Shown piece after piece: positions 3,334 through 46,982 of a DNA stretch of 64,000 nt. The notes under the pieces are model-generated. The model made no database searches and was not told where the DNA came from. It saw only the letters and a list, made by a program, of their open reading frames with translations. The DNA lies in the IMG/VR virus record IMGVR_UViG_3300036766_000889; one strand, written 5' to 3'. Within the stretch, counting starts at the first letter, position 1. Every line of letters begins with the position of its first letter. Position numbers and translations under genes: made by a program. Source of the DNA: a virus.

Positions 3334-6138
3334 TTAGGGCTGGATCGGGTTTCCGAACAAATCCGACAAGCCCCCAATATCAAGACCATACGTAACAAAA
3401 TCTTTCATCCCGCGAACTTGTACACGCAAAACTCTTGGGTTACTCCAATATGATTCGCCAACCAGTAGTCCAGGCGGGCCAGTAAAACTGAGCTGAGCAA
3501 GCGTTACAGGTTCTTCGCGCATCGGCTTAGAAAAGAAGACATCGAGTTGGTCCTTTACCAATTTTTCTTTTGGCGACCCTCGTCCGGCTCCAGGTTCTGG
3601 TGAAGCAGATGCTATGAATGGTGGGTCAGATACGCCCAAAAATGACGCGCTTATTCTTCTTGTTGTTGGTGACGGGCGTGAGTATGGGTCATTCGAAAGA
3701 ACCTTCAGATCAGCTGTGATGGTATACTCAGACCCATCAGTGAGACCATCGTAATGAAACATAATAGTGTCAAAAAGCTTAGAAAACTGTAGTCTTGGTC
3801 CTTTGGCATAATGGGACGAAAGGTTATTTCTATGAGCAAAAAGTGCTCTGCTTAAAGCGATAGCGACGATAGAAGCTGATTTCAAATCAACCGCGTCTGG
3901 TTCGTAAACTGCGTCGGCCGAAGCCTGGAAAATATGATATATACCATCAACATTTGCGACATGACGGTTATATACGCTTTTCAAAAAATTAACAGCCGTG
4001 ACTATTGACTCTTCACTCATTGACGGAATGTTGGAATCGTTAAAGTCATCAAGTGTATCAGTTAGTATATGTACAGGAATTTGTCCTGATGGGGATACCC
4101 CAGATTCAGACAAATGAGTCCTGAAAACTTGCATCAGTTCTTCTATGAGAGCTTGTATCGAATAGACGGACGTCTCAAGGGATATGCTTGTAACGTTGAC
4201 AGGAAGACCATCCGTATTTGTTATCCGTACATCTTCCGTTCTAGGCATAACGAGATCAGCGGATGTTCTAATGCTTAAAGAACGTTTGCGAGGTAGGACT
4301 GACATTAAACTAACTTCACCAAATGGTGAAGTTGTGAAAACGAACGGCGTATCTTGAAAATCAGCACTATTGAGATTTACCGTTATGGTATACTTCGGAA
4401 TCGATGCTTCACTGACTAGTTTCAACCTGGCCGCATATGTAAACCCATCTCTAATGGGTGGTGCAGAATCGGGGTCAGCAAATGGAGTAGTAGAGTCAAC
4501 TTCAACAGGAAACTCATAAATTATATGATTGTTGAAAACATCCTTCATTGTTGAAGAAATTGACAGAGCAGAAACTGGGTCTATCACAGTTTGAGGCGTT
4601 AGAGTATTAACATCGTCAAAATATAGGTGTGGAGGTCTAGAAGCCAAGTGCGCAACGTATTTTATCTGTAACTCGTTCAATAACGAAATAGCTTCTGATG
4701 TGGTTGTTATAGATGGAGTGATGCATTCTGGATGCGAGTATGGAGCGTTCGGGGTGTTTACAGTATCCTCATATGAGTGCCATGGACCAAGTTCATGCAT
4801 AGACAAACGAGTTTTGAGTTCATCAGCAATGAGTGACGCGGAGTATAAATCAGATGAGTCATTCGGATCTGCAGATGTAATAATATTTTCGTTGTCCGTA
4901 GCTATGTGATAAGGAATGACTCCGAACAACGCACTTAGATGCGAGTTAAACCCGTATTTAAGAGCAGTGGCTAGTGATACAGCTTGTTGAATCGTAAATG
5001 CAGGTTCAAGGTCCACCACATCTGCCATGTCGGGGTTAGAATGTGATGGAACAGTAACGGAGTGTGAATTAAATTTTTCTAATAAATCATTCAGAAGTCC
5101 CGTTACTGACGCGACAGATGGCGGTGAATCGGCATCTGCAAAATGAACATTTTGAAATGACAAATGACTATTGAATTTAGACTTAAAATCTAAGCATATC
5201 GCAATAAGTGAAGGAGAATCAATAGGATCCGGAGCAGTGACTGGAAGAGAGTCACCAGAAAGGTGAACACCTTCTTTCGTAACATTCCATTTTGAAATGT
5301 CAGTTATATCAGTCGAAAGCATCGGGCAGCTAAAGAAAACGTCAACGTACGCGTTACGCTCTGCTGGAACTACCTTGCTAACATGTGCGGATGTGACTGT
5401 TGGAGTTGATATGTCAGCATAAGAAAAAGGAGGAGGAGAAGTAAGTCTCAAATCAAGAAAAACTTCACCGTCACCTGTATTAAAAGATGAGTCTGTGACT
5501 TTCTGATACTGAATTAGGAACTTATCTCCAGAAACGAGTCCGGGTTGAATTCTGAATCTTATGTTCGTTTCAGGAACGTCCGGAAAGCTTATAACCGGCA
5601 AAAGAACCGACATAGGTAAAACGGTGTCACCAACAATGGGAAAAATCTGAGCAGTGGCGTAAATCGTAGACGTATCTCGAACCGATTTATCGAACACTAT
5701 GTCGATACAAGACCTGTCAGAGAGGAAAGCTCCGACTGCTCGAGGTGGGGCTGGAACCGAAGCACTGAAGTTATAGGTAGAGGTTGAAGATATTCTGCCG
5801 TCCAGTGAATGAATGTCTTGAAGTAACAAAGAGTAAACAGCGGATAGTGTGAAGTCTCCAGAAAAAGTAACGGCGACAGATGTCATATCGCTATCAAAGA
5901 ATTCAACTGAAATAGCAGAAGGTATGAAAATCTCTGGAACACCAAAAACTGGTGATAAAAAATAGGCTCTTGGCCTTAAAGCACTTTCGTCTACAGGAAC
6001 CTCAAATACGACTCTTAGTGTAATAGAGTCAAGAACATGGACTCTAAAACCAAATGACGGTCCCTGATTGGGAAGAATGCCGAGAACAATCTTTCCTAGC
6101 AAACTTCCAGGCTGACCGAGGATAGACTGATTCGGCAC
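3334..6138 (-). CDS. Virion structural protein (934 aa) with Ig-like beta segments and ~9 His-x6-His helical repeats
   Basis: Long ORF in the tail cluster; repeats such as LNELQIKYVAHLASRPPH; C-terminal LDVFFSKPM...DLFGNPI resembles an Ig-like (SbsA-type) domain. Confidence 0.65.
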   Translation of the reverse strand: MPNQSILGQPGSLLGKIVLGILPNQGPSFGFRVHVLDSITLRVVFEVPVDESALRPRAYFLSPVFGVPEIFIPSAISVEFFDSDMTSVAVTFSGDFTLSAVYSLLLQDIHSLDGRISSTSTYNFSASVPAPPRAVGAFLSDRSCIDIVFDKSVRDTSTIYATAQIFPIVGDTVLPMSVLLPVISFPDVPETNIRFRIQPGLVSGDKFLIQYQKVTDSSFNTGDGEVFLDLRLTSPPPFSYADISTPTVTSAHVSKVVPAERNAYVDVFFSCPMLSTDITDISKWNVTKEGVHLSGDSLPVTAPDPIDSPSLIAICLDFKSKFNSHLSFQNVHFADADSPPSVASVTGLLNDLLEKFNSHSVTVPSHSNPDMADVVDLEPAFTIQQAVSLATALKYGFNSHLSALFGVIPYHIATDNENIITSADPNDSSDLYSASLIADELKTRLSMHELGPWHSYEDTVNTPNAPYSHPECITPSITTTSEAISLLNELQIKYVAHLASRPPHLYFDDVNTLTPQTVIDPVSALSISSTMKDVFNNHIIYEFPVEVDSTTPFADPDSAPPIRDGFTYAARLKLVSEASIPKYTITVNLNSADFQDTPFVFTTSPFGEVSLMSVLPRKRSLSIRTSADLVMPRTEDVRITNTDGLPVNVTSISLETSVYSIQALIEELMQVFRTHLSESGVSPSGQIPVHILTDTLDDFNDSNIPSMSEESIVTAVNFLKSVYNRHVANVDGIYHIFQASADAVYEPDAVDLKSASIVAIALSRALFAHRNNLSSHYAKGPRLQFSKLFDTIMFHYDGLTDGSEYTITADLKVLSNDPYSRPSPTTRRISASFLGVSDPPFIASASPEPGAGRGSPKEKLVKDQLDVFFSKPMREEPVTLAQLSFTGPPGLLVGESYWSNPRVLRVQVRGMKDFVTYGLDIGGLSDLFGNPIQP

Positions 6139-41932: not shown

Positions 41933-42238
41933 TTAACCAACTAACTGAAGAGTCTTCACAAGCTTACGTGCAGAACAACCAGGTCCAAGCGCAACAGCTG
42001 TAAGGGCGTTCTGAAGGTCGGGTTCAAAATTTAACGCAATTGGTATGAGAGCATCATTGGCAGCCTTAGCTAGGCCCCAAATATCAGGAGATTTGAGCAA
42101 TACAAGTGTTTTGGAGTCAGCATACCAACTTCGTTCGAGCTCTGGATAACCCTCCTGGAATTCACGCATTGCGTGGCATGCTTGCGCAGCTTGTAAACCA
42201 ACAGGAAGGTCATCTCGAACTATTACATAAAGTTTCAT
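41933..42238 (-). CDS. pth2: Peptidyl-tRNA hydrolase, Pth2/PTRHD1-like
   Basis: KLYVIVRDDLPVGLQAAQACHA...W...KTLVLLK...EPDLQNALTAVALGP...LQL are PTH2-superfamily motifs. Confidence 0.85.
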   Translation of the reverse strand: MKLYVIVRDDLPVGLQAAQACHAMREFQEGYPELERSWYADSKTLVLLKSPDIWGLAKAANDALIPIALNFEPDLQNALTAVALGPGCSARKLVKTLQLVG

Positions 42239-42606
42239 GGTTTGGTCTCCTGTTGTAGATCACCCGATGAGTCAAATAGTGCTTCCGCAGGCGTGGCTCC
42301 ATAACTAGAGTGCAGAAATCGTCGTTCGGACTCATGTTGAATGAATCGACGACGATATCTCAAAGAATCGATGGCACCGGTATGTAACTCGATTAACCAG
42401 TTTAAATGCATATGGTCCAGTGTACGCAGCCAGACCTCATAATCCCCGGCACCACCAAAACTACGAGGTTTATCTTTAGACCAGAGTTTACGCAAGGAAT
42501 AACTTTTCATCGGCACAGCTTGAAAAATTAATTTATTGAGACGGATTATTTCTTCTTTGAGCTGTTGGATAACTTGAGTTTGAAGCTCATTTGATTCTTG
42601 AACCAT
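42235..42606 (-). CDS. Hypothetical protein (123 aa, MVQESNELQ...), coupled to pth2
   Basis: AGGAGAG RBS before ATG 42606; ATGA overlap with pth2; the upstream extension in the ORF track runs through the RNA array. Confidence 0.7.
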   Translation of the reverse strand: MVQESNELQTQVIQQLKEEIIRLNKLIFQAVPMKSYSLRKLWSKDKPRSFGGAGDYEVWLRTLDHMHLNWLIELHTGAIDSLRYRRRFIQHESERRFLHSSYGATPAEALFDSSGDLQQETKP

Positions 42607-42626
42607 GTTCTCTCCTATAATAGACA

Positions 42627-42709
42627 TGGTCCAGCGGGGACGAGTCGAACGTCCGTCTTGCCGTTGCCTTGCGGCACGGGCATGTCCTGCCTTTTTGGAC
42701 GACCGCCAG
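42627..42709 (-). ncRNA. tRNA-like RNA 4: extended anticodon arm capped by GCAA; G3.U70, A73, encoded CCA
   Basis: CTGGCGG TC GTCC AAAAAGGCA GGAC A TGCC CG TGCC GCAA GGCA AC GGCA AGAC GGACG TTCGACT CGTCC CCGCTGG A CCA. Confidence 0.8.
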
Positions 42710-42713
42710 ATGA

Positions 42714-42788
42714 TGGCGGGGCTGCTTGGAGTTAAACCAAGAGTCTTCGGGCTTTCGACCCGTCGCTCTATCGTTGAGCTACAACCCC
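42714..42788 (-). tRNA. tRNA-like RNA 3 (nominal GAA anticodon but C33, folds as C-GAAA-G tetraloop); encoded CCA
   Basis: GGGGTTG TA GCTC AACGATA GAGC G ACGGG TCGAAAG CCCGA AGACT CTTGG TTTAACT CCAAG CAGCCCC G CCA. Confidence 0.75.
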
Positions 42789-42789
42789 G

Positions 42790-42831
42790 TGGCGGGGCTC
42801 CGGAGACACCCGAAGGCGTCTCAAGAGCCCC
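42790..42831 (-). ncRNA. CCA-ended minihelix hairpin with cUUCGg loop
   Basis: GGGGCTCTTGAGACGCC TTCG GGTGTCTCCGGAGCCCC G CCA (17-bp stem, one mismatch). Confidence 0.7.
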
Positions 42832-42832
42832 A

Positions 42833-42917
42833 TAGCGCGCAGGGCTGGTACCGCCCCAACTACCTCCCTGGAAGCCCTTACGGACCCCAGGGCGCTCTAC
42901 TAGTGAGCTACCTGCGC
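42833..42917 (-). ncRNA. tRNA-like RNA 2: 11-bp anticodon arm capped by GUAA; non-canonical T-loop
   Basis: GCGCAGG TA GCTC ACTAGTA GAGC G CCCTGG GGTCC GTAA GGGCT T CCAGGG AGGTA GTTGG GGCGGTA CCAGC CCTGCGC G CTA. Confidence 0.75.
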
Positions 42918-42928
42918 AAAGTTGAAAG

Positions 42929-43002
42929 CGCGCTCGGAGGGAGTCGAACCCACAGCCGCCCCGATCATTAATCGGGTAGCTCAACCGTTGAGCTTCAAGC
43001 GC
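42929..43002 (-). tRNA. tRNA-like RNA 1 (atypical; nominal AAU anticodon, A8, no encoded CCA)
   Basis: GCGCTTG AA GCTC AACGGTT GAGC TA CCCGA TTAATGA TCGGG GCGGCT GTGGG TTCGACT CCCTC CGAGCGC G. Confidence 0.7.
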
Positions 43003-43012
43003 AATACTGAAA

Positions 43013-43116
43013 GTGGTCAGTGCCCTCGCTGGGCCTTTTGGCGCGAGGTATTGAACTAATCCCCTGAAAGGGAGCGCCTTCCCGGCGCAACGGTCAATGC
43101 GAGCTGATCACGGACC
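43013..43116 (-). ncRNA. Structured multi-hairpin leader RNA of the array
   Basis: Ends can pair (GTGATCAG/CTGACCAC); internal hairpins GCGCC-GGGAA-GGCGC, TCCCT-TTC-AGGGGA and CCTCGC...GCGAGG. Confidence 0.5.
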
Positions 43117-43117
43117 A

Positions 43118-43146
43118 AACATAACACTGAAATTTTCAAAGCGCAA
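43118..43146 (-). promoter_or_regulatory. Sigma70-like promoter for the tRNA-like array
   Basis: TTGCGC - 17 bp - TATGTT with an extended -10 TG. Confidence 0.55.
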
Positions 43147-43158
43147 GTATTTCAAATA

Positions 43159-43190
43159 CAAGTGAGGCCACGAAATCGTGGCCTCACTTG
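43159..43190 (-). terminator. Perfect 14-bp hairpin after the tail tube gene (probable intrinsic terminator)
   Basis: CAAGTGAGGCCACG-aaat-CGTGGCCTCACTTG followed by TATTT on the minus strand. Confidence 0.75.
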
Positions 43191-43209
43191 ATACTAAACG
43201 TTTGTTCAA

Positions 43210-43905
43210 CTAAAAGCCGTTTGCGGATCCACCGGTCGCTGTATATAGTCTTGAACCAGCGCCCGGTTGAGTGATCGGATTGTTTCCTGAATCCAGGAAA
43301 TCACCGTACGAATCAGAAGAGTTCCCATAGAAACTAGTACCATCAGTAACATCAGTACAGCTTGCGGAAGCGTCTTCAGCAACGATAGCAGAATCCGACG
43401 GGAACGAAATCGAGACTGACTGGAGCCAACACGCTTCGAAATACGTGATCAAAGCAAGCTGACCGTCAACTCCGAGAGTCTGGTTAAGGACCATGGCCGA
43501 GGCATCCAAGGCTTGAACGAGTTCCGAAAAAACAAGTTCAGAACGAAGGTCAAACGGCCACTTATGCTGACGAAGTGAACGAACAAGACCGTCAACACCG
43601 GCCCGGTATCCAACTTCCTGTGCAATGCCAGCGGTATACAAAAGTGTACGGTTAAGCGTCAAGCTCATCGGCTCTGTAACGCCAGGCACGAGCTCTTGAA
43701 TCTTATCGCCGAAACCAACACCACGCACTGGGTCAACCGCACGATTTTCACTATAATCAAATGTAGACAACACTCCCACTTGTTTTAATGATGGAGTCTG
43801 AGTAGTAAATGGTGTTGAGAAGACCCGGTTCTTTTGGCTGATGGCTACGCGCGTATTCGGTGAACTGCCTTTGCGATAAATGTAAGTATCACTGTTTCCT
43901 CGCAT
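43210..43905 (-). CDS. Tail tube protein
   Basis: VRGVGFGDKIQELVPG...LTLNRTLLY...ITYFEACWLQSVSISF matches contractile tube proteins; GAGG RBS; own terminator. Confidence 0.75.
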   Translation of the reverse strand: MRGNSDTYIYRKGSSPNTRVAISQKNRVFSTPFTTQTPSLKQVGVLSTFDYSENRAVDPVRGVGFGDKIQELVPGVTEPMSLTLNRTLLYTAGIAQEVGYRAGVDGLVRSLRQHKWPFDLRSELVFSELVQALDASAMVLNQTLGVDGQLALITYFEACWLQSVSISFPSDSAIVAEDASASCTDVTDGTSFYGNSSDSYGDFLDSGNNPITQPGAGSRLYTATGGSANGF

Positions 43906-44039: not shown

Positions 44040-45791
44040 ATGAGATCAGAAGTGCAAAAACAAACAAGACAAGAGCAAAATAAAGTTAATTCTATTCAGT
44101 ATACTGAATACTATGACAAAAATTTAGGTAAACTAACAACATGCGAAAAATGCAGTCAAGAATATGAGTTAAAATACTTTGTTAAAAACTACTCATTCAG
44201 AAATGTATGTAAAAATTGCCATGCTTTACAAATAAAAAAATGGAGACAGACGAAACCGGGATTAGCTCAAAAGGCTAGATTTCGTTCCTTTCGAACATCA
44301 GCAGACTTCATAAAATCGTTTAAATTGGGTAAAAGTTGCACAGTATGTAATAAAGAATATCCGCCATGTGCAATGGATTTTAACCATCAGGATAAATATA
44401 CCAAATTAGATTCAATCTCAGGTTTATACGGGAAATCAAAAAAGAGAATAAGAGATGAAATTGAAAAATGTGAATTAATTTGTGCAAATTGTCATAGGGA
44501 TATAACTCAGACTCAGTTAGAAACTGTTCCGACTAGTAAAAATAGAATATATAAACCAGAATTGGTAGATACCAACATATCAATTGGAAGTGAAACAAAA
44601 TTTTGCATTAAATGTGAACAAAAAAAACACGTTGAAGATTTCACTTTGTTGAAAATAGGAAAAAGACATTCATATTGCAAGAAGTGTTTGAGAGAATATA
44701 ACAAAAATTTGCAAAGACCTGATAAATTTTCAAAATCAGAGAGATTGATAATATTATTAAAGGACAATAAAACATGTGCCGACTGTGGTGTTCAGTATAG
44801 ATACTGGGTTATGGACTTTGATCATATTTCAGATGACAAATTTGATAGTATAAACAAATTACGAAATAAAAATACTGAAACCGTAGTACATGAAATAAAC
44901 AAATGTGAATTGGTTTGTGCAAACTGCCATAAAATAAGAACTCATAGAAAAAAACTTTCAAAAGATAACAATGGTATTTATTGTCCATGTATAGATCATG
45001 GTAATGACTCATATGATTTATTAAATTTTGTGAAGTCTCTAAGTACAGAAGCGAAATTAGAAACAATAAATGACATTCAATTTGTCACAACAGAACAGGC
45101 AAAGGTATCCATACTTAAATTTGAAACAAACAATAAAAATGTTTTGAAAAGTATAAATGATGATAAAGCGATATTAATTTTTGAAGACGAATGGCGAGAA
45201 AACCAGCACAAAGTTAAAAATCTGTTAATAAATCGATTCAAGTCATACCAACAACAGAAGAAACTTCGACCGTCTCAGTGCAAAATCAGAACGATAAATC
45301 ATCAAGATGCCGATAAATTTCTCAATATACATCACTATATAGGAGCGTGTAAACCACACGTAAGTTACGGCGTTTTTTATTCAGACCGATTGATTTGCGT
45401 AATGAGTTTCAAAACGCCAACCAGACAATCTAGTCATCCGTGGGAATTAGTCAGAATGGTATCAGATCCAGAGTTCCGTGTTCATGGAATTTGGTCAAAA
45501 CTTCTTCAACAATTTATTCAAGAAAAAAACCCAGATTCAATTGTTAGTTTTTCTGACAACAGACTTTTTCCGGGTGCGGTTTATCAAGCGATCGGGTTCT
45601 TATTCGATGGAACAATCGTACCTGATTACTACTGGGTAAAAAACAAGAAAAGATTCCATAAATCAGGACTTCGTAAATCAAAACAGGAGAAACTAAGTAA
45701 TTTAACTGAAACGGAACTTAGAGAAGCCCAAGGATATAGGAAAATTTGGGACCTCGGGAAAAAAAGATGGGTATATCGGACCACCAAATAG
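44040..45791 (+). CDS. Composite homing endonuclease: tandem HNH/Zn units plus Hef-like (FEDEW and GNAT/Mom-like) C-terminus
   Basis: MDFNH...KCELICANCH twice; IFEDEW; FLNIHHYIG...WELVRM...SFSDNR...YQAIGF...KIWDLGKKRW; strongly AT-rich. Confidence 0.75.
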   Translation: MRSEVQKQTRQEQNKVNSIQYTEYYDKNLGKLTTCEKCSQEYELKYFVKNYSFRNVCKNCHALQIKKWRQTKPGLAQKARFRSFRTSADFIKSFKLGKSCTVCNKEYPPCAMDFNHQDKYTKLDSISGLYGKSKKRIRDEIEKCELICANCHRDITQTQLETVPTSKNRIYKPELVDTNISIGSETKFCIKCEQKKHVEDFTLLKIGKRHSYCKKCLREYNKNLQRPDKFSKSERLIILLKDNKTCADCGVQYRYWVMDFDHISDDKFDSINKLRNKNTETVVHEINKCELVCANCHKIRTHRKKLSKDNNGIYCPCIDHGNDSYDLLNFVKSLSTEAKLETINDIQFVTTEQAKVSILKFETNNKNVLKSINDDKAILIFEDEWRENQHKVKNLLINRFKSYQQQKKLRPSQCKIRTINHQDADKFLNIHHYIGACKPHVSYGVFYSDRLICVMSFKTPTRQSSHPWELVRMVSDPEFRVHGIWSKLLQQFIQEKNPDSIVSFSDNRLFPGAVYQAIGFLFDGTIVPDYYWVKNKKRFHKSGLRKSKQEKLSNLTETELREAQGYRKIWDLGKKRWVYRTTK

Positions 45792-46373: not shown

Positions 46374-46982
46374 ATGAACGATAATATTGCAGAAATCGCG
46401 GAAACATCGGAAACGACAGGGTCATCGATAAGCCGAGCTGGCGATGTAGATTTACTTGATGAAGAGGAGTTGTTACTTGAACTGATACGAAGCATTGTAC
46501 TAAAACCTCAGAGCGTGACGGTTGAAACAGAACGAAGTACGGATAGAACGGTGTTAACGATAACCGTAGACCCGTCAGATCGAGGCCATGTGATTGGTCG
46601 TGATCGTCGAACCATAGATGCCATCATCCATCTGTTTACAAAGTCTGCAACTCTTCTAGAAGGGCGAAGAGTTCTCATTCGTTTGACGGGTGCAGACATA
46701 TATATGAGGAGCAACAAGCCCGACAATAGGCAGCAGCAGCCGTACGACAACAGGCAGCAGCCGTACGACAACAGGCAGCCGTACGACAACAGGCAACAGC
46801 AGCAGCCGTACGATAACAGGCAGCCGTACGATAACAGGCCGTACGATAACAGGCAGCCGCAGCCGTACGACAACAGGTACGACAACAGGCAGCCACGACA
46901 ATACGACGACAGGCAACCTGATAACAGACAGCGCACCGTTCGTCGAACGTCTACGAATTCAGGACCGCAACGAAACCGTTGA
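46374..46982 (+). CDS. khpA: KhpA/YlqC-like KH-domain protein with C-terminal (QPYDNR)n low-complexity tail
   Basis: LIRSIVLKPQSVTV...LTITVDPSDRGHVIGRDRRTIDAI...RRVLIRL follows the KhpA pattern; GGAG-like RBS (GAGAG). Confidence 0.75.
   Translation: MNDNIAEIAETSETTGSSISRAGDVDLLDEEELLLELIRSIVLKPQSVTVETERSTDRTVLTITVDPSDRGHVIGRDRRTIDAIIHLFTKSATLLEGRRVLIRLTGADIYMRSNKPDNRQQQPYDNRQQPYDNRQPYDNRQQQQPYDNRQPYDNRPYDNRQPQPYDNRYDNRQPRQYDDRQPDNRQRTVRRTSTNSGPQRNR
46719..46930 (+). repeat. Tandem 15-27 bp coding repeat (ccgtacgacaacaggcag)
   Basis: About 10 DNR-containing units. Confidence 0.9.

Follow-up and report, generated by a model that had tools for sequence, protein, structure and literature searches.

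We analysed a 64,000-nucleotide (nt) stretch of viral DNA (IMG/VR record IMGVR_UViG_3300036766_000889; the window) and observed that its minus strand carries, between positions 43146 and 41933, a mobile, conserved operon whose RNAs are structured, tRNA-derived and for the most part non-decoding. The operon is tied to a gene for a protein with the fold of the PTH2 family of peptidyl-tRNA hydrolases. It would be read as a single transcript containing a leader, four tRNA-shaped RNAs, a CCA-ended hairpin, and the mRNA for an optional basic protein and the PTH2-fold protein. The reading that we prefer, tentatively and with less than even confidence, is that the RNAs are non-decoding tRNA mimics that would serve as off-ribosome decoys or competitive ligands, while the PTH2-like protein would act on the ends of acyl-tRNAs.

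The RNA array and its homologues

An earlier reading made from the letters of the window (the sequence-only reading) had described a tightly packed array of a structured leader, four cloverleafs and a CCA-ended minihelix. All of these units were located (Table 1), with spacers of 0, 11, 1, 1 and 4 nt between successive units from the leader to unit 5. The array had a G+C content of 0.58-0.64, compared with about 0.46 in its surroundings. When each unit was folded alone and without constraints, the minimum free energy (MFE) structure was the proposed cloverleaf or hairpin, and the 42-nt minihelix reached an MFE of -33 kcal/mol (z = -5.9). We searched the 64-kb window for tRNAs using ARAGORN and Rfam (RF00005, gathering threshold 29 bits), and a permissive Rfam scan (E<=10) covered positions 42500-43300. 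The two tRNAs called in the window were units 1 and 4. Units 2 and 5 were not called by ARAGORN and gave no Rfam tRNA match even at E<=10, and the permissive scan added only a 23-bit YrlA fragment and noise. The expectation that the cloverleafs would be called as pseudo or undetermined tRNAs, or be missed, thus held for units 2 and 5, but not for unit 1 (called Ile) and unit 4 (called Phe).

A large protein collection yielded 13 homologues of the 123-amino acid (aa) open reading frame of the operon (ORF123) and 10 homologues of the PTH2-fold protein; their contigs, along with a pattern scan of metagenomes, gave the loci compared here. We observed homologous arrays in 16 metagenomic loci, representing about 10 distinct variants (array loci L003-L014 and L016; reduced arrays L017 and L023). 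The order promoter, leader, unit 1, unit 2, unit 5 was constant in the aligned loci. The minihelix was restricted to the window group, L003, L004 and L016, and unit 4 was absent from L003-L006. ORF123 was absent from L003-6, L008, L016, L017 and L023, and is hence an optional member of the operon. As had been proposed, the linkage of the array with PTH2 recurred elsewhere: the PTH2 gene lay 0-0.7 kb 3' of every array for which about 700 nt or more of sequence was available downstream. In L010 an extra small ORF was present between the array and PTH2, and L014, which has the same ORF127 as L010, extended for 900 nt downstream without reaching PTH2. Five PTH2 homologues of 54-82% identity had readable DNA (P0016, P0017, P0018, P0022, P0023), and an array or reduced array was found directly upstream of all five. 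The genomic context varied, being a tail-gene region in the window and an HNH gene with a true tRNA-Leu/Met/Arg cluster beside L003, L005 and L016. The operon has a conserved promoter of its own, and the differing contexts indicate that it moves as a unit.

Base pairs were counted on MAFFT alignments, each against shuffled and slid controls. Unit 1 had 94.7% of its cells paired with 9 compensatory pairs, and unit 2 had 97% paired with 10 compensatory pairs, of which the long arm held 5, a result that none of 500 shuffles reached. For unit 4, 95% of the cells were paired with 5 compensatory pairs, including the tertiary pair 19:56, and for unit 5 the values were 99.5% and 2, both in the long arm. 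In slid registers the paired cells fell to 26-58%. A four-helix cloverleaf with covarying stems was thus found in all four units, and the homologous loci covary, as the idea of a maintained RNA family had implied, rather than showing random decay. The elbow pair 19:56 (D loop to T loop) of unit 4 was A-U in 4 and G-C in 3 variants, and this joint switching points to selection on the L-shape itself. In these comparisons, purifying selection was seen to maintain the complete L-shape of a tRNA in the RNAs: the acceptor stem, both the D arm and the T arm and, for unit 4, the elbow pair.

When we examined the anticodon arms, the GNRA caps reported for three of the four cloverleafs were all present (GUAA in unit 2, C-GAAA-G in unit 4 and GCAA in unit 5). 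Homologous loci kept these capped arms rather than normal anticodon loops, the caps being found in 9/9 variants of unit 2, 8/8 of unit 4 and 8/10 of unit 5. None of these three units had the 7-nt loop with U33, a purine at position 37 and a conserved anticodon that is expected of a tRNA. Units 2 and 5 carried a closed helix of 9-13 base pairs (bp) with a tetraloop, leaving no loop able to present a triplet. The long arm of unit 2 measured 10 bp in L005 and in L011 (perfect in the latter), 11 bp in the window and 13 bp in L003, and it was always closed and GYAA-capped. In unit 4, pair C33-G38 was C-G in 7 of 7 variants and positions 34-37 were always GAAA or GCAA. The counterparts of unit 4 in L016 and L023 formed a 6-bp stem with a GCAA cap, which ARAGORN reported as 'tRNA-???', and this strengthened the earlier suggestion that the unit 4 loop can fold as a GNRA stem. 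Nearly all tRNAs have U33. The C33 of unit 4, its complementary G38, the GNRA sequence at 34-37 and the stems in L016 and L023 indicate that the GAA of this unit is part of a tetraloop and not a conserved anticodon. Units 2, 4 and 5 cannot read codons, as a closed helix with a GNRA cap, variable in length, takes the place of their anticodon loop. We also considered the long arms as introns; this was rejected, as they are continuous helices without a bulge-helix-bulge or a conserved triplet.

These data bear on the possibility that the units are relic tRNA genes that moved with pth2 and now act as RNase P/RNase Z cleavage signals and stable 5' structures, releasing or protecting the pth2 mRNA. 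PTH2 genes within the genuine tRNA clusters of Bixzunavirus and jumbo-phage contigs would be an obvious origin for such relics, the unit number differs among lineages, and directly 3' of unit 5 there is a hairpin (GGACC-N4-GGUCC) or a stem that sequesters the Shine-Dalgarno site. However, a cleavage signal needs no maintained 19:56 elbow pair, nor GNRA caps kept across lineages above covarying, length-changing stems, and for this purpose four or five units and encoded CCA ends would be superfluous. Conservation was also higher in the array, where the alignments of units and leader had mean column identities of 81-95%, than in the downstream proteins (mostly 64-85% for PTH2). We consider the relic explanation quite improbable.

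The 3' ends of the units fit the mimic reading, in which free acceptor ends would be displayed. CCA was encoded in unit 4 of 9/9 variants, in the minihelix, and in unit 2 except in the window group (GCUA in the window, GCCA in the relatives), while unit 5 ended in ACCA, ACCG or GCUA. The next unit started mostly 0-5 nt after the preceding 3' end. From this layout we infer that the array is probably matured as a tRNA operon, by RNase P and 3' trimming. Unit 2 had a non-canonical T loop (GGCRGYA). In loci without ORF123 we observed a 14-nt perfect or near-perfect palindrome (GGACCGCGCGGTCC, GGACCACGTGGTCC, GGACCGTGCGGTCC) that begins inside the ACC of unit 5; palindrome sites were seen at L003:3970-3985, L005:3969-3984, L008, L013 and L016:2970-2985. 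At this position the window instead shows pairing with the ORF123 start region, and the loop encloses the ORF123 Shine-Dalgarno site. The element 3' of unit 5 could possibly have a role in processing, stability or translational control.

Unit 1 has a 7-nt loop of the form K-U-R-A-U-G-M, with anticodon AAU in the window and GAU in relatives, and this loop with its U33 was kept even in the distant L018 and L023. It is unusual in having G37 and, in most cases, A or C at position 8; its D arm combines a stem of 5 bp with a loop of 5 nt, the discriminator is mostly G, and CCA is not encoded. Unit 1 may or may not decode; its loop could pair with AUY, or with the invariant CAUU of the leader. The leader has, ahead of its hairpins, an 11-nt single strand, GCAUUGACCGU, which was invariant among leaders. 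RNAalifold on 10 sequences gave 19 pairs in three hairpins that were invariant or covarying. The third (H3) has a GNRA cap and a 3-nt bulge, and its pair 69:89 was U-A in 7 and A-U in 3 sequences. No Rfam family matched the leader.

The leader motif CAUUGA (within GCAUUGA, 43090-43100) includes the Ile codon AUU. It is complementary to the unit 1 loop U-R-A-U-G (42965-42971) over 4-5 bp in the window; the complementarity reaches 7 bp in L018 and 6 bp in L003, in which C occupies position 38. In the diverged L017, L018 and L023 the two motifs persist despite an otherwise changed leader. A match of 4-5 nt is expected by chance in a 110-nt leader, and it is worth noting only for its conservation; we report it as an observation and not as a claim. 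A T-box was also considered: Rfam gave no T-box match at E<=10 over 42500-43300, and the CAUU/AAUG complementarity of 4-5 nt between the leader and unit 1 was seen by eye only. The diverged array of L018 (L018:100-445, on a 176-kb contig binned as Anaerolineales) is separated by 2 kb, with genes on the opposite strand, from a downstream PTH2 gene of 44% identity. It consists of a leader-like GUCAUUGACAGU, a tRNA-Ile(AAU)-like unit with the loop CCUAAUG, and an 80-nt 'tRNA-Val' with an irregular anticodon arm.

The PTH2-fold protein and ORF123

The array had been described as being followed by a 123-aa gene that is ATGA-coupled to a Pth2-type gene, and both the overlap and the PTH2 fold were found. 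The PTH2 protein matched Pfam PF01981 with 27 bits, above the gathering cut-off of 23 (E=5e-6), and phrog_1866. Its AlphaFold2 (AF2) model had a predicted local distance difference test (pLDDT) score of 93.4, and Foldseek aligned it with archaeal Pth2 and human Bit1 at template modelling (TM) scores of 0.82-0.84. The top 14 Foldseek matches were all Pth2 or Bit1, mostly at TM 0.74-0.84.

The closest relatives in cultured phages were proteins annotated as 'peptidyl tRNA hydrolase' of Bixzunavirus (cluster-C) mycobacteriophages, with 42% identity over 97% of the length. Relatives were found in 211 phage records, 206 of them from Mycobacterium phages. In phage Alice the relative, gp150, lies in the middle of a genuine tRNA cluster and on the same strand. 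The IMG/VR scan with PTH2 returned only two distant jumbo-phage loci, both beside normal tRNAs, and the surroundings of distant homologues in jumbo-phage contigs comprise normal and suppressor tRNAs and a transfer-messenger RNA (tmRNA). One such contig (L002:3001-4665) carries a PTH2 homologue without the Lys discussed below and, after it, a tRNA of the amber-suppressor type (CUA) and a complete tmRNA (137.8 bits), and CUA tRNAs also stand beside the PTH2 homologue in L019 and L020. From the TANNNT -10 boxes, the mycobacteriophage homologues and a homologue in a Microbacteriaceae metagenome-assembled genome (L019), we infer that the host is actinobacterial.

The Lys of the G-K motif, present in every aligned archaeal and human Pth2, was replaced in 13/13 members of the clade (V-G-L, with a two-residue deletion). 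The Asp of the D-x-G-x-T motif aligned with an invariant E-P-D in the clade. Both the G-K Lys and the D-x-G-x-T Asp are reportedly catalytic in the Pth2 of Sulfolobus.

ORF123 encodes a helical protein with a basic RYRRRF motif, and its invariant core among the 13 homologues reads GGA.DYEVWLR...LHTG.ID.LRYRRRF.Q.E.ERR.LHSSYG. It had no match in Pfam, PHROG or PADLOC, and the ESM Atlas gave sub-threshold leads only. The AF2 model was of low confidence (pLDDT 65.6, predicted TM score 0.32). ORF123 was found beside PTH2 without an array in L024, and without an array or an annotated PTH2 gene in L015. The ORF123 family, a 386-aa family (motif TPF.T..G.W.YTQGLV) and PTH2 recur together in varying order, with or without the array, as seen at L024:1348-3577 and downstream of the array in L010 and L014. 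This suggests that the three form a protein module of which the RNA array is one optional neighbour.

The mimics might also be ligands of the PTH2-like protein itself, serving it as partners or regulators, with ORF123 taking part or not. They could join the protein in a ribonucleoprotein, provide a scaffold or chaperone, or be an inhibitor that processing sets free, in loose analogy to the RNA of a type III toxin-antitoxin system; the Lys-less PTH2 fold would then be mainly a binder of tRNA 3' ends. A strict order of array followed by PTH2, in one transcript and at all loci, would suit such a partnership. So would the retention of at least one cloverleaf directly before PTH2 in the reduced L017 and L023, the clade-wide lack of the conserved Lys, and the basic RYRRRF motif in ORF123. 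On the other hand, PTH2 homologues of 38-46% identity occur without an array, beside ordinary tRNAs (Alice, L001, L002) or protein genes (L024). The units are mutually different and not tandem repeats, unlike type III antitoxin arrays, and the operon is without a nuclease. A search for a type III toxin-antitoxin system was likewise negative, as Tandem Repeats Finder reported no repeat with a score of at least 30, the protein downstream has the PTH2 fold, and PADLOC gave no match. We regard a partner-RNA role as unlikely.

Likeness to known systems and the proposed role

The tRNA clusters of Bixzunavirus, as around Alice gp150, resemble the operon in having a homologous PTH2-like protein on the same strand as a run of tRNA genes. 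They differ in that the neighbours are ordinary decoding tRNAs (47-69 bits in Rfam), whereas the array of the window has a dedicated promoter and most of its anticodon loops are lost. In Alice (L022), an element with an acceptor stem and a T arm (GGGAGAG ... GGGUGGUUCGAAUCCACCC UCUCCC) was seen directly 3' of gp150 at 3997-4063, and a YrlA-like permuted tRNA module at 4398-4523 (24.6 bits in Rfam, below cut-off). The un-annotated spacers of this cluster were strongly structured, and a relaxed ARAGORN search of Alice, which produced many false calls, revealed no clear cloverleaf with a GNRA cap.

The tRNA-like domain of tmRNA shares with the array units an acceptor stem, a T arm, CCA and the absence of an anticodon, and in unit 5 mostly also G3.U70 and A73; a tmRNA also adjoins the PTH2 homologue in phage L002. 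The units differ from tmRNA in their full D stem and closed 'anticodon' helix, and they are without an mRNA-like part, pseudoknots or a tag ORF. The suggestion of a tmRNA-like system was not borne out: the window gave no tag ORF and no tmRNA call with ARAGORN or Rfam (RF00023), and the same tools find the tmRNA in L002.

Dedicated aminoacyl carriers for non-ribosomal transfer, or RNAs for tmRNA-like ribosome rescue, with PTH2 recycling them, were weighed against the same data; unit 5, for example, could be charged with alanine via G3.U70 and A73. G3.U70, A73 and CCA occurred in 7/9 distinct unit 5 variants, and the CCA ends are encoded. With its canonical T loop (UUCGACU) and a D loop that contains GG, unit 5 is similar to a tRNA or to the tRNA-like domain of tmRNA. 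Its acceptor stem in the window starts with C1-G72, U2.G71 and G3.U70. However, pair 3:70 was G.U in 7 and A-U in 2 distinct sequences (L005/6, L011), so that a fixed tRNA-Ala identity of unit 5 is weakened, and pair 1:72 is C-G. The capped arms are several bp longer than an anticodon arm and would be expected to clash with the decoding centre, and the operon is without a transferase or an SmpB-like gene. Together with the missing tmRNA calls and tag reading frame, this makes a carrier or rescue role very unlikely in our view.

YrlA and other Y RNAs, which are bound by Ro60, are like the array units in being non-decoding tRNA mimics found in phage tRNA regions. YrlA is circularly permuted, with a loop-closed acceptor and with its ends placed in the Ro-binding stem, whereas the array units have free CCA acceptor ends and are closed on the anticodon side. 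The match to YrlA (RF02553) over units 1-2 was weak, with 23 bits against a cut-off of 69. A permuted YrlA fold over units 1 and 2 was rejected by the covariation, which supports the ordinary cloverleaf: the permuted pairing between the 3' acceptor strand of unit 1 and the 5' strand of unit 2 is lost in L007, where unit 1 covaries internally. A Y-RNA/Ro-helix reading of the leader was also rejected as a conserved trait, since the 5' GGUCCG strand was confined to the window group and is placed at, or upstream of, the likely start of transcription.

Structured RNAs other than tRNAs that are transcribed and processed together with viral tRNA-type genes, and whose function is unknown or non-decoding, include the stable 'species 1 and 2' RNAs from the tRNA cluster of T4 and the tRNA-like RNAs of murid gammaherpesvirus 68. 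To our knowledge these have no sequence or structure relation to the array, and we know of no GNRA-capped arm or PTH2 linkage among them. Phages evade anticodon nucleases by altering tRNA loops (PMC10264068), and T5 tRNAs act against PARIS and retron Eco7 (PMC11555353). Such loop-altered tRNAs resemble the array units in being phage-encoded, tRNA-derived and different from the host in the anticodon region, and in occurring in tRNA-rich phages. They decode and replace the cleaved host tRNA, which units 2, 4 and 5 cannot do, so that any benefit from these units would come via binding and not translation.

Full-text literature searches returned no description of anticodon-less phage tRNA mimics, and a free-ended array of CCA-bearing cloverleafs with GNRA-capped anticodon arms was absent from Rfam 15 and from the literature searched. 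Earlier, no described family had been recognized for this architecture; this stands for the anticodon-less mimics, but PTH2 in phage tRNA clusters is already annotated in about 200 cluster-C mycobacteriophages. What is known, therefore, is the link of PTH2 with phage tRNA genes and the existence of non-decoding tRNA mimics (the tmRNA domain, YrlA), and what appears to be new is the anticodon-less cloverleaf array.

We favour mimicry since the features kept are those read by enzymes of the acceptor and body, and the feature lost is the one that is read by the ribosome and targeted by anticodon nucleases. Host RNase P and 3' trimming or CCA-adding enzymes would release discrete, stable RNAs from the array. 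The mature RNAs would display the acceptor end, the elbow and the body, i.e. the tRNA parts recognized away from the decoding centre, and could thereby occupy host proteins that bind or attack tRNAs. The likeliest targets would be tRNA-directed immunity effectors, either acceptor-end modifiers or anticodon-arm nucleases, the capped arm presumably resisting the latter, while the PTH2-like protein may work on the acylated 3' ends of tRNAs or of the mimics. The toxSAS and GNAT toxins recognize nothing beyond the acceptor stem and CCA, and minihelices suffice as their substrates (bioRxiv 10.1101/2024.07.05.602228). Tails of tRNAs are cut by Cas12a3 (PMC12851939), and tRNA tails or arms are the cleavage sites of several recently described defences. 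A more specific version, which we hold to be rather doubtful, is a new phage counter-defence in which a processed array of CCA-ended decoys with different acceptor and body types would jam tRNA-targeting effectors, the Lys-less PTH2 would deacylate, and the leader CAUUGA/URAUG contact would possibly control the transcript.

Several points weigh against the mimic reading. The conserved Lys is absent from the PTH2 clade, so that hydrolase activity is not assured. The change of G3.U70 to A-U in unit 5 of two lineages makes a fixed amino-acid identity unlikely. Unit content varies in a way that fits several roles: arrays can do without the minihelix and unit 4, and no more than one or two cloverleafs are present in L017 and L023. 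A stoichiometric decoy would have to be very abundant. The family is also rare: a DNA search of GenBank phages with the whole module gave no match, and neither did IMG/VR scans with ORF123, the unit-2 motif, the leader motif or the unit-5 motif.

Host weapons directed at tRNA include PrrC, PARIS, retron effectors, toxSAS, GNAT toxins, MenT, Cas12a3, Schlafen and OLD. With tRNAs as a main battleground between bacteria and phages, the phage answers so far have been replacement tRNAs, repair enzymes and hydrolases. If the mimic reading is true, non-decoding RNAs that keep the acceptor end and elbow would represent mimicry instead of replacement. The array would add a structured-RNA family that is missing from Rfam, and natural minimal tRNA mimics, such as the 42-nt CCA minihelix and the GNRA-capped bodies, would be useful for probing what tRNA-binding enzymes read. 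As the Lys-less PTH2 clade is common to about 200 cultured mycobacteriophages, the question is approachable in Mycobacterium smegmatis.

Transcription signals and neighbouring genes

The coordinates of the operon and its flanking features are collected in Table 1.

Table 1. Features of the operon and its flanks, in window positions and in the order of transcription
Feature	Position	Strand	Description
Upstream 231-aa ORF	43905-43210	minus	
Putative terminator	43188-43161	minus	12-bp hairpin and U-rich tail, 3' of the 231-aa ORF; read from sequence
Proposed promoter	-35 43146-43141; -10 43123-43118	minus	-35 TTGCGC, 17-nt spacer, -10 TATGTT (TANNNT type)
Structured leader	43114-43003	minus	single-stranded GCAUUGACCGU, then H1 GCGCC/GGCGC, H2 UCCC/GGGA, H3
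Unit 1, tRNA-Ile-like cloverleaf	43002-42929	minus	ARAGORN Ile-AAU; Rfam 41.8 bits
Unit 2, cloverleaf	42917-42833	minus	anticodon arm an 11-bp helix with one bulge, GUAA cap
Minihelix	42831-42790	minus	7-bp and 8-bp stems separated by an internal loop; UUCG loop; ends in GCCA
Unit 4, cloverleaf scored as tRNA-Phe(GAA)	42788-42714	minus	Rfam 55.4 bits; loop U-C-GAAA-G; GCCA encoded
Unit 5, cloverleaf	42709-42627	minus	9-bp anticodon arm with two bulges, GCAA cap; ends in ACCA
ORF123, 123 aa	42606-42235	minus	preceded by an AGGAGA site
PTH2-fold gene, 101 aa	42238-41933	minus	ATG overlaps the ORF123 TGA (ATGA)
A+T-rich 10-bp hairpin	41924-41899	minus	3' of the PTH2 stop, overlapping a promoter-like site of the next gene; from sequence

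The sequence-only reading had placed a sigma70-like promoter before the array, following the terminator of a tube gene. An equivalent promoter position was present in all homologous arrays (-35 TTGCGC/TTGACA/TTGCAT, -10 TAGACT/TAGGCT/TATGTT), although the site fell below the threshold of a simple consensus scan for promoters and terminators in the window, which listed neither 43146-43118 nor the hairpin at 43188-43161. This hairpin and its U-rich tract are nevertheless present, and the hairpin is kept in the nearest relatives L009, L012 and L013. The tube label found no backing, as Pfam and PHROG searches with the 231-aa ORF were without a match. The consensus scan did list a promoter-like TTGACT-17-TAAAGT at 41932-41904, downstream of PTH2.

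A 583-aa HNH/homing-endonuclease protein with a Mom-like C-terminal domain is encoded on the plus strand at 44040-45791, where the local G+C content drops to 26-34% compared with about 47% around it. This region is probably a recently acquired selfish element adjoining the module, and the module has HNH genes beside it in L003, L005 and L016 as well. Further along the plus strand (46374-46982) we observed a 202-aa ORF in which PYDNRQ-type repeats fill the C-terminal half.

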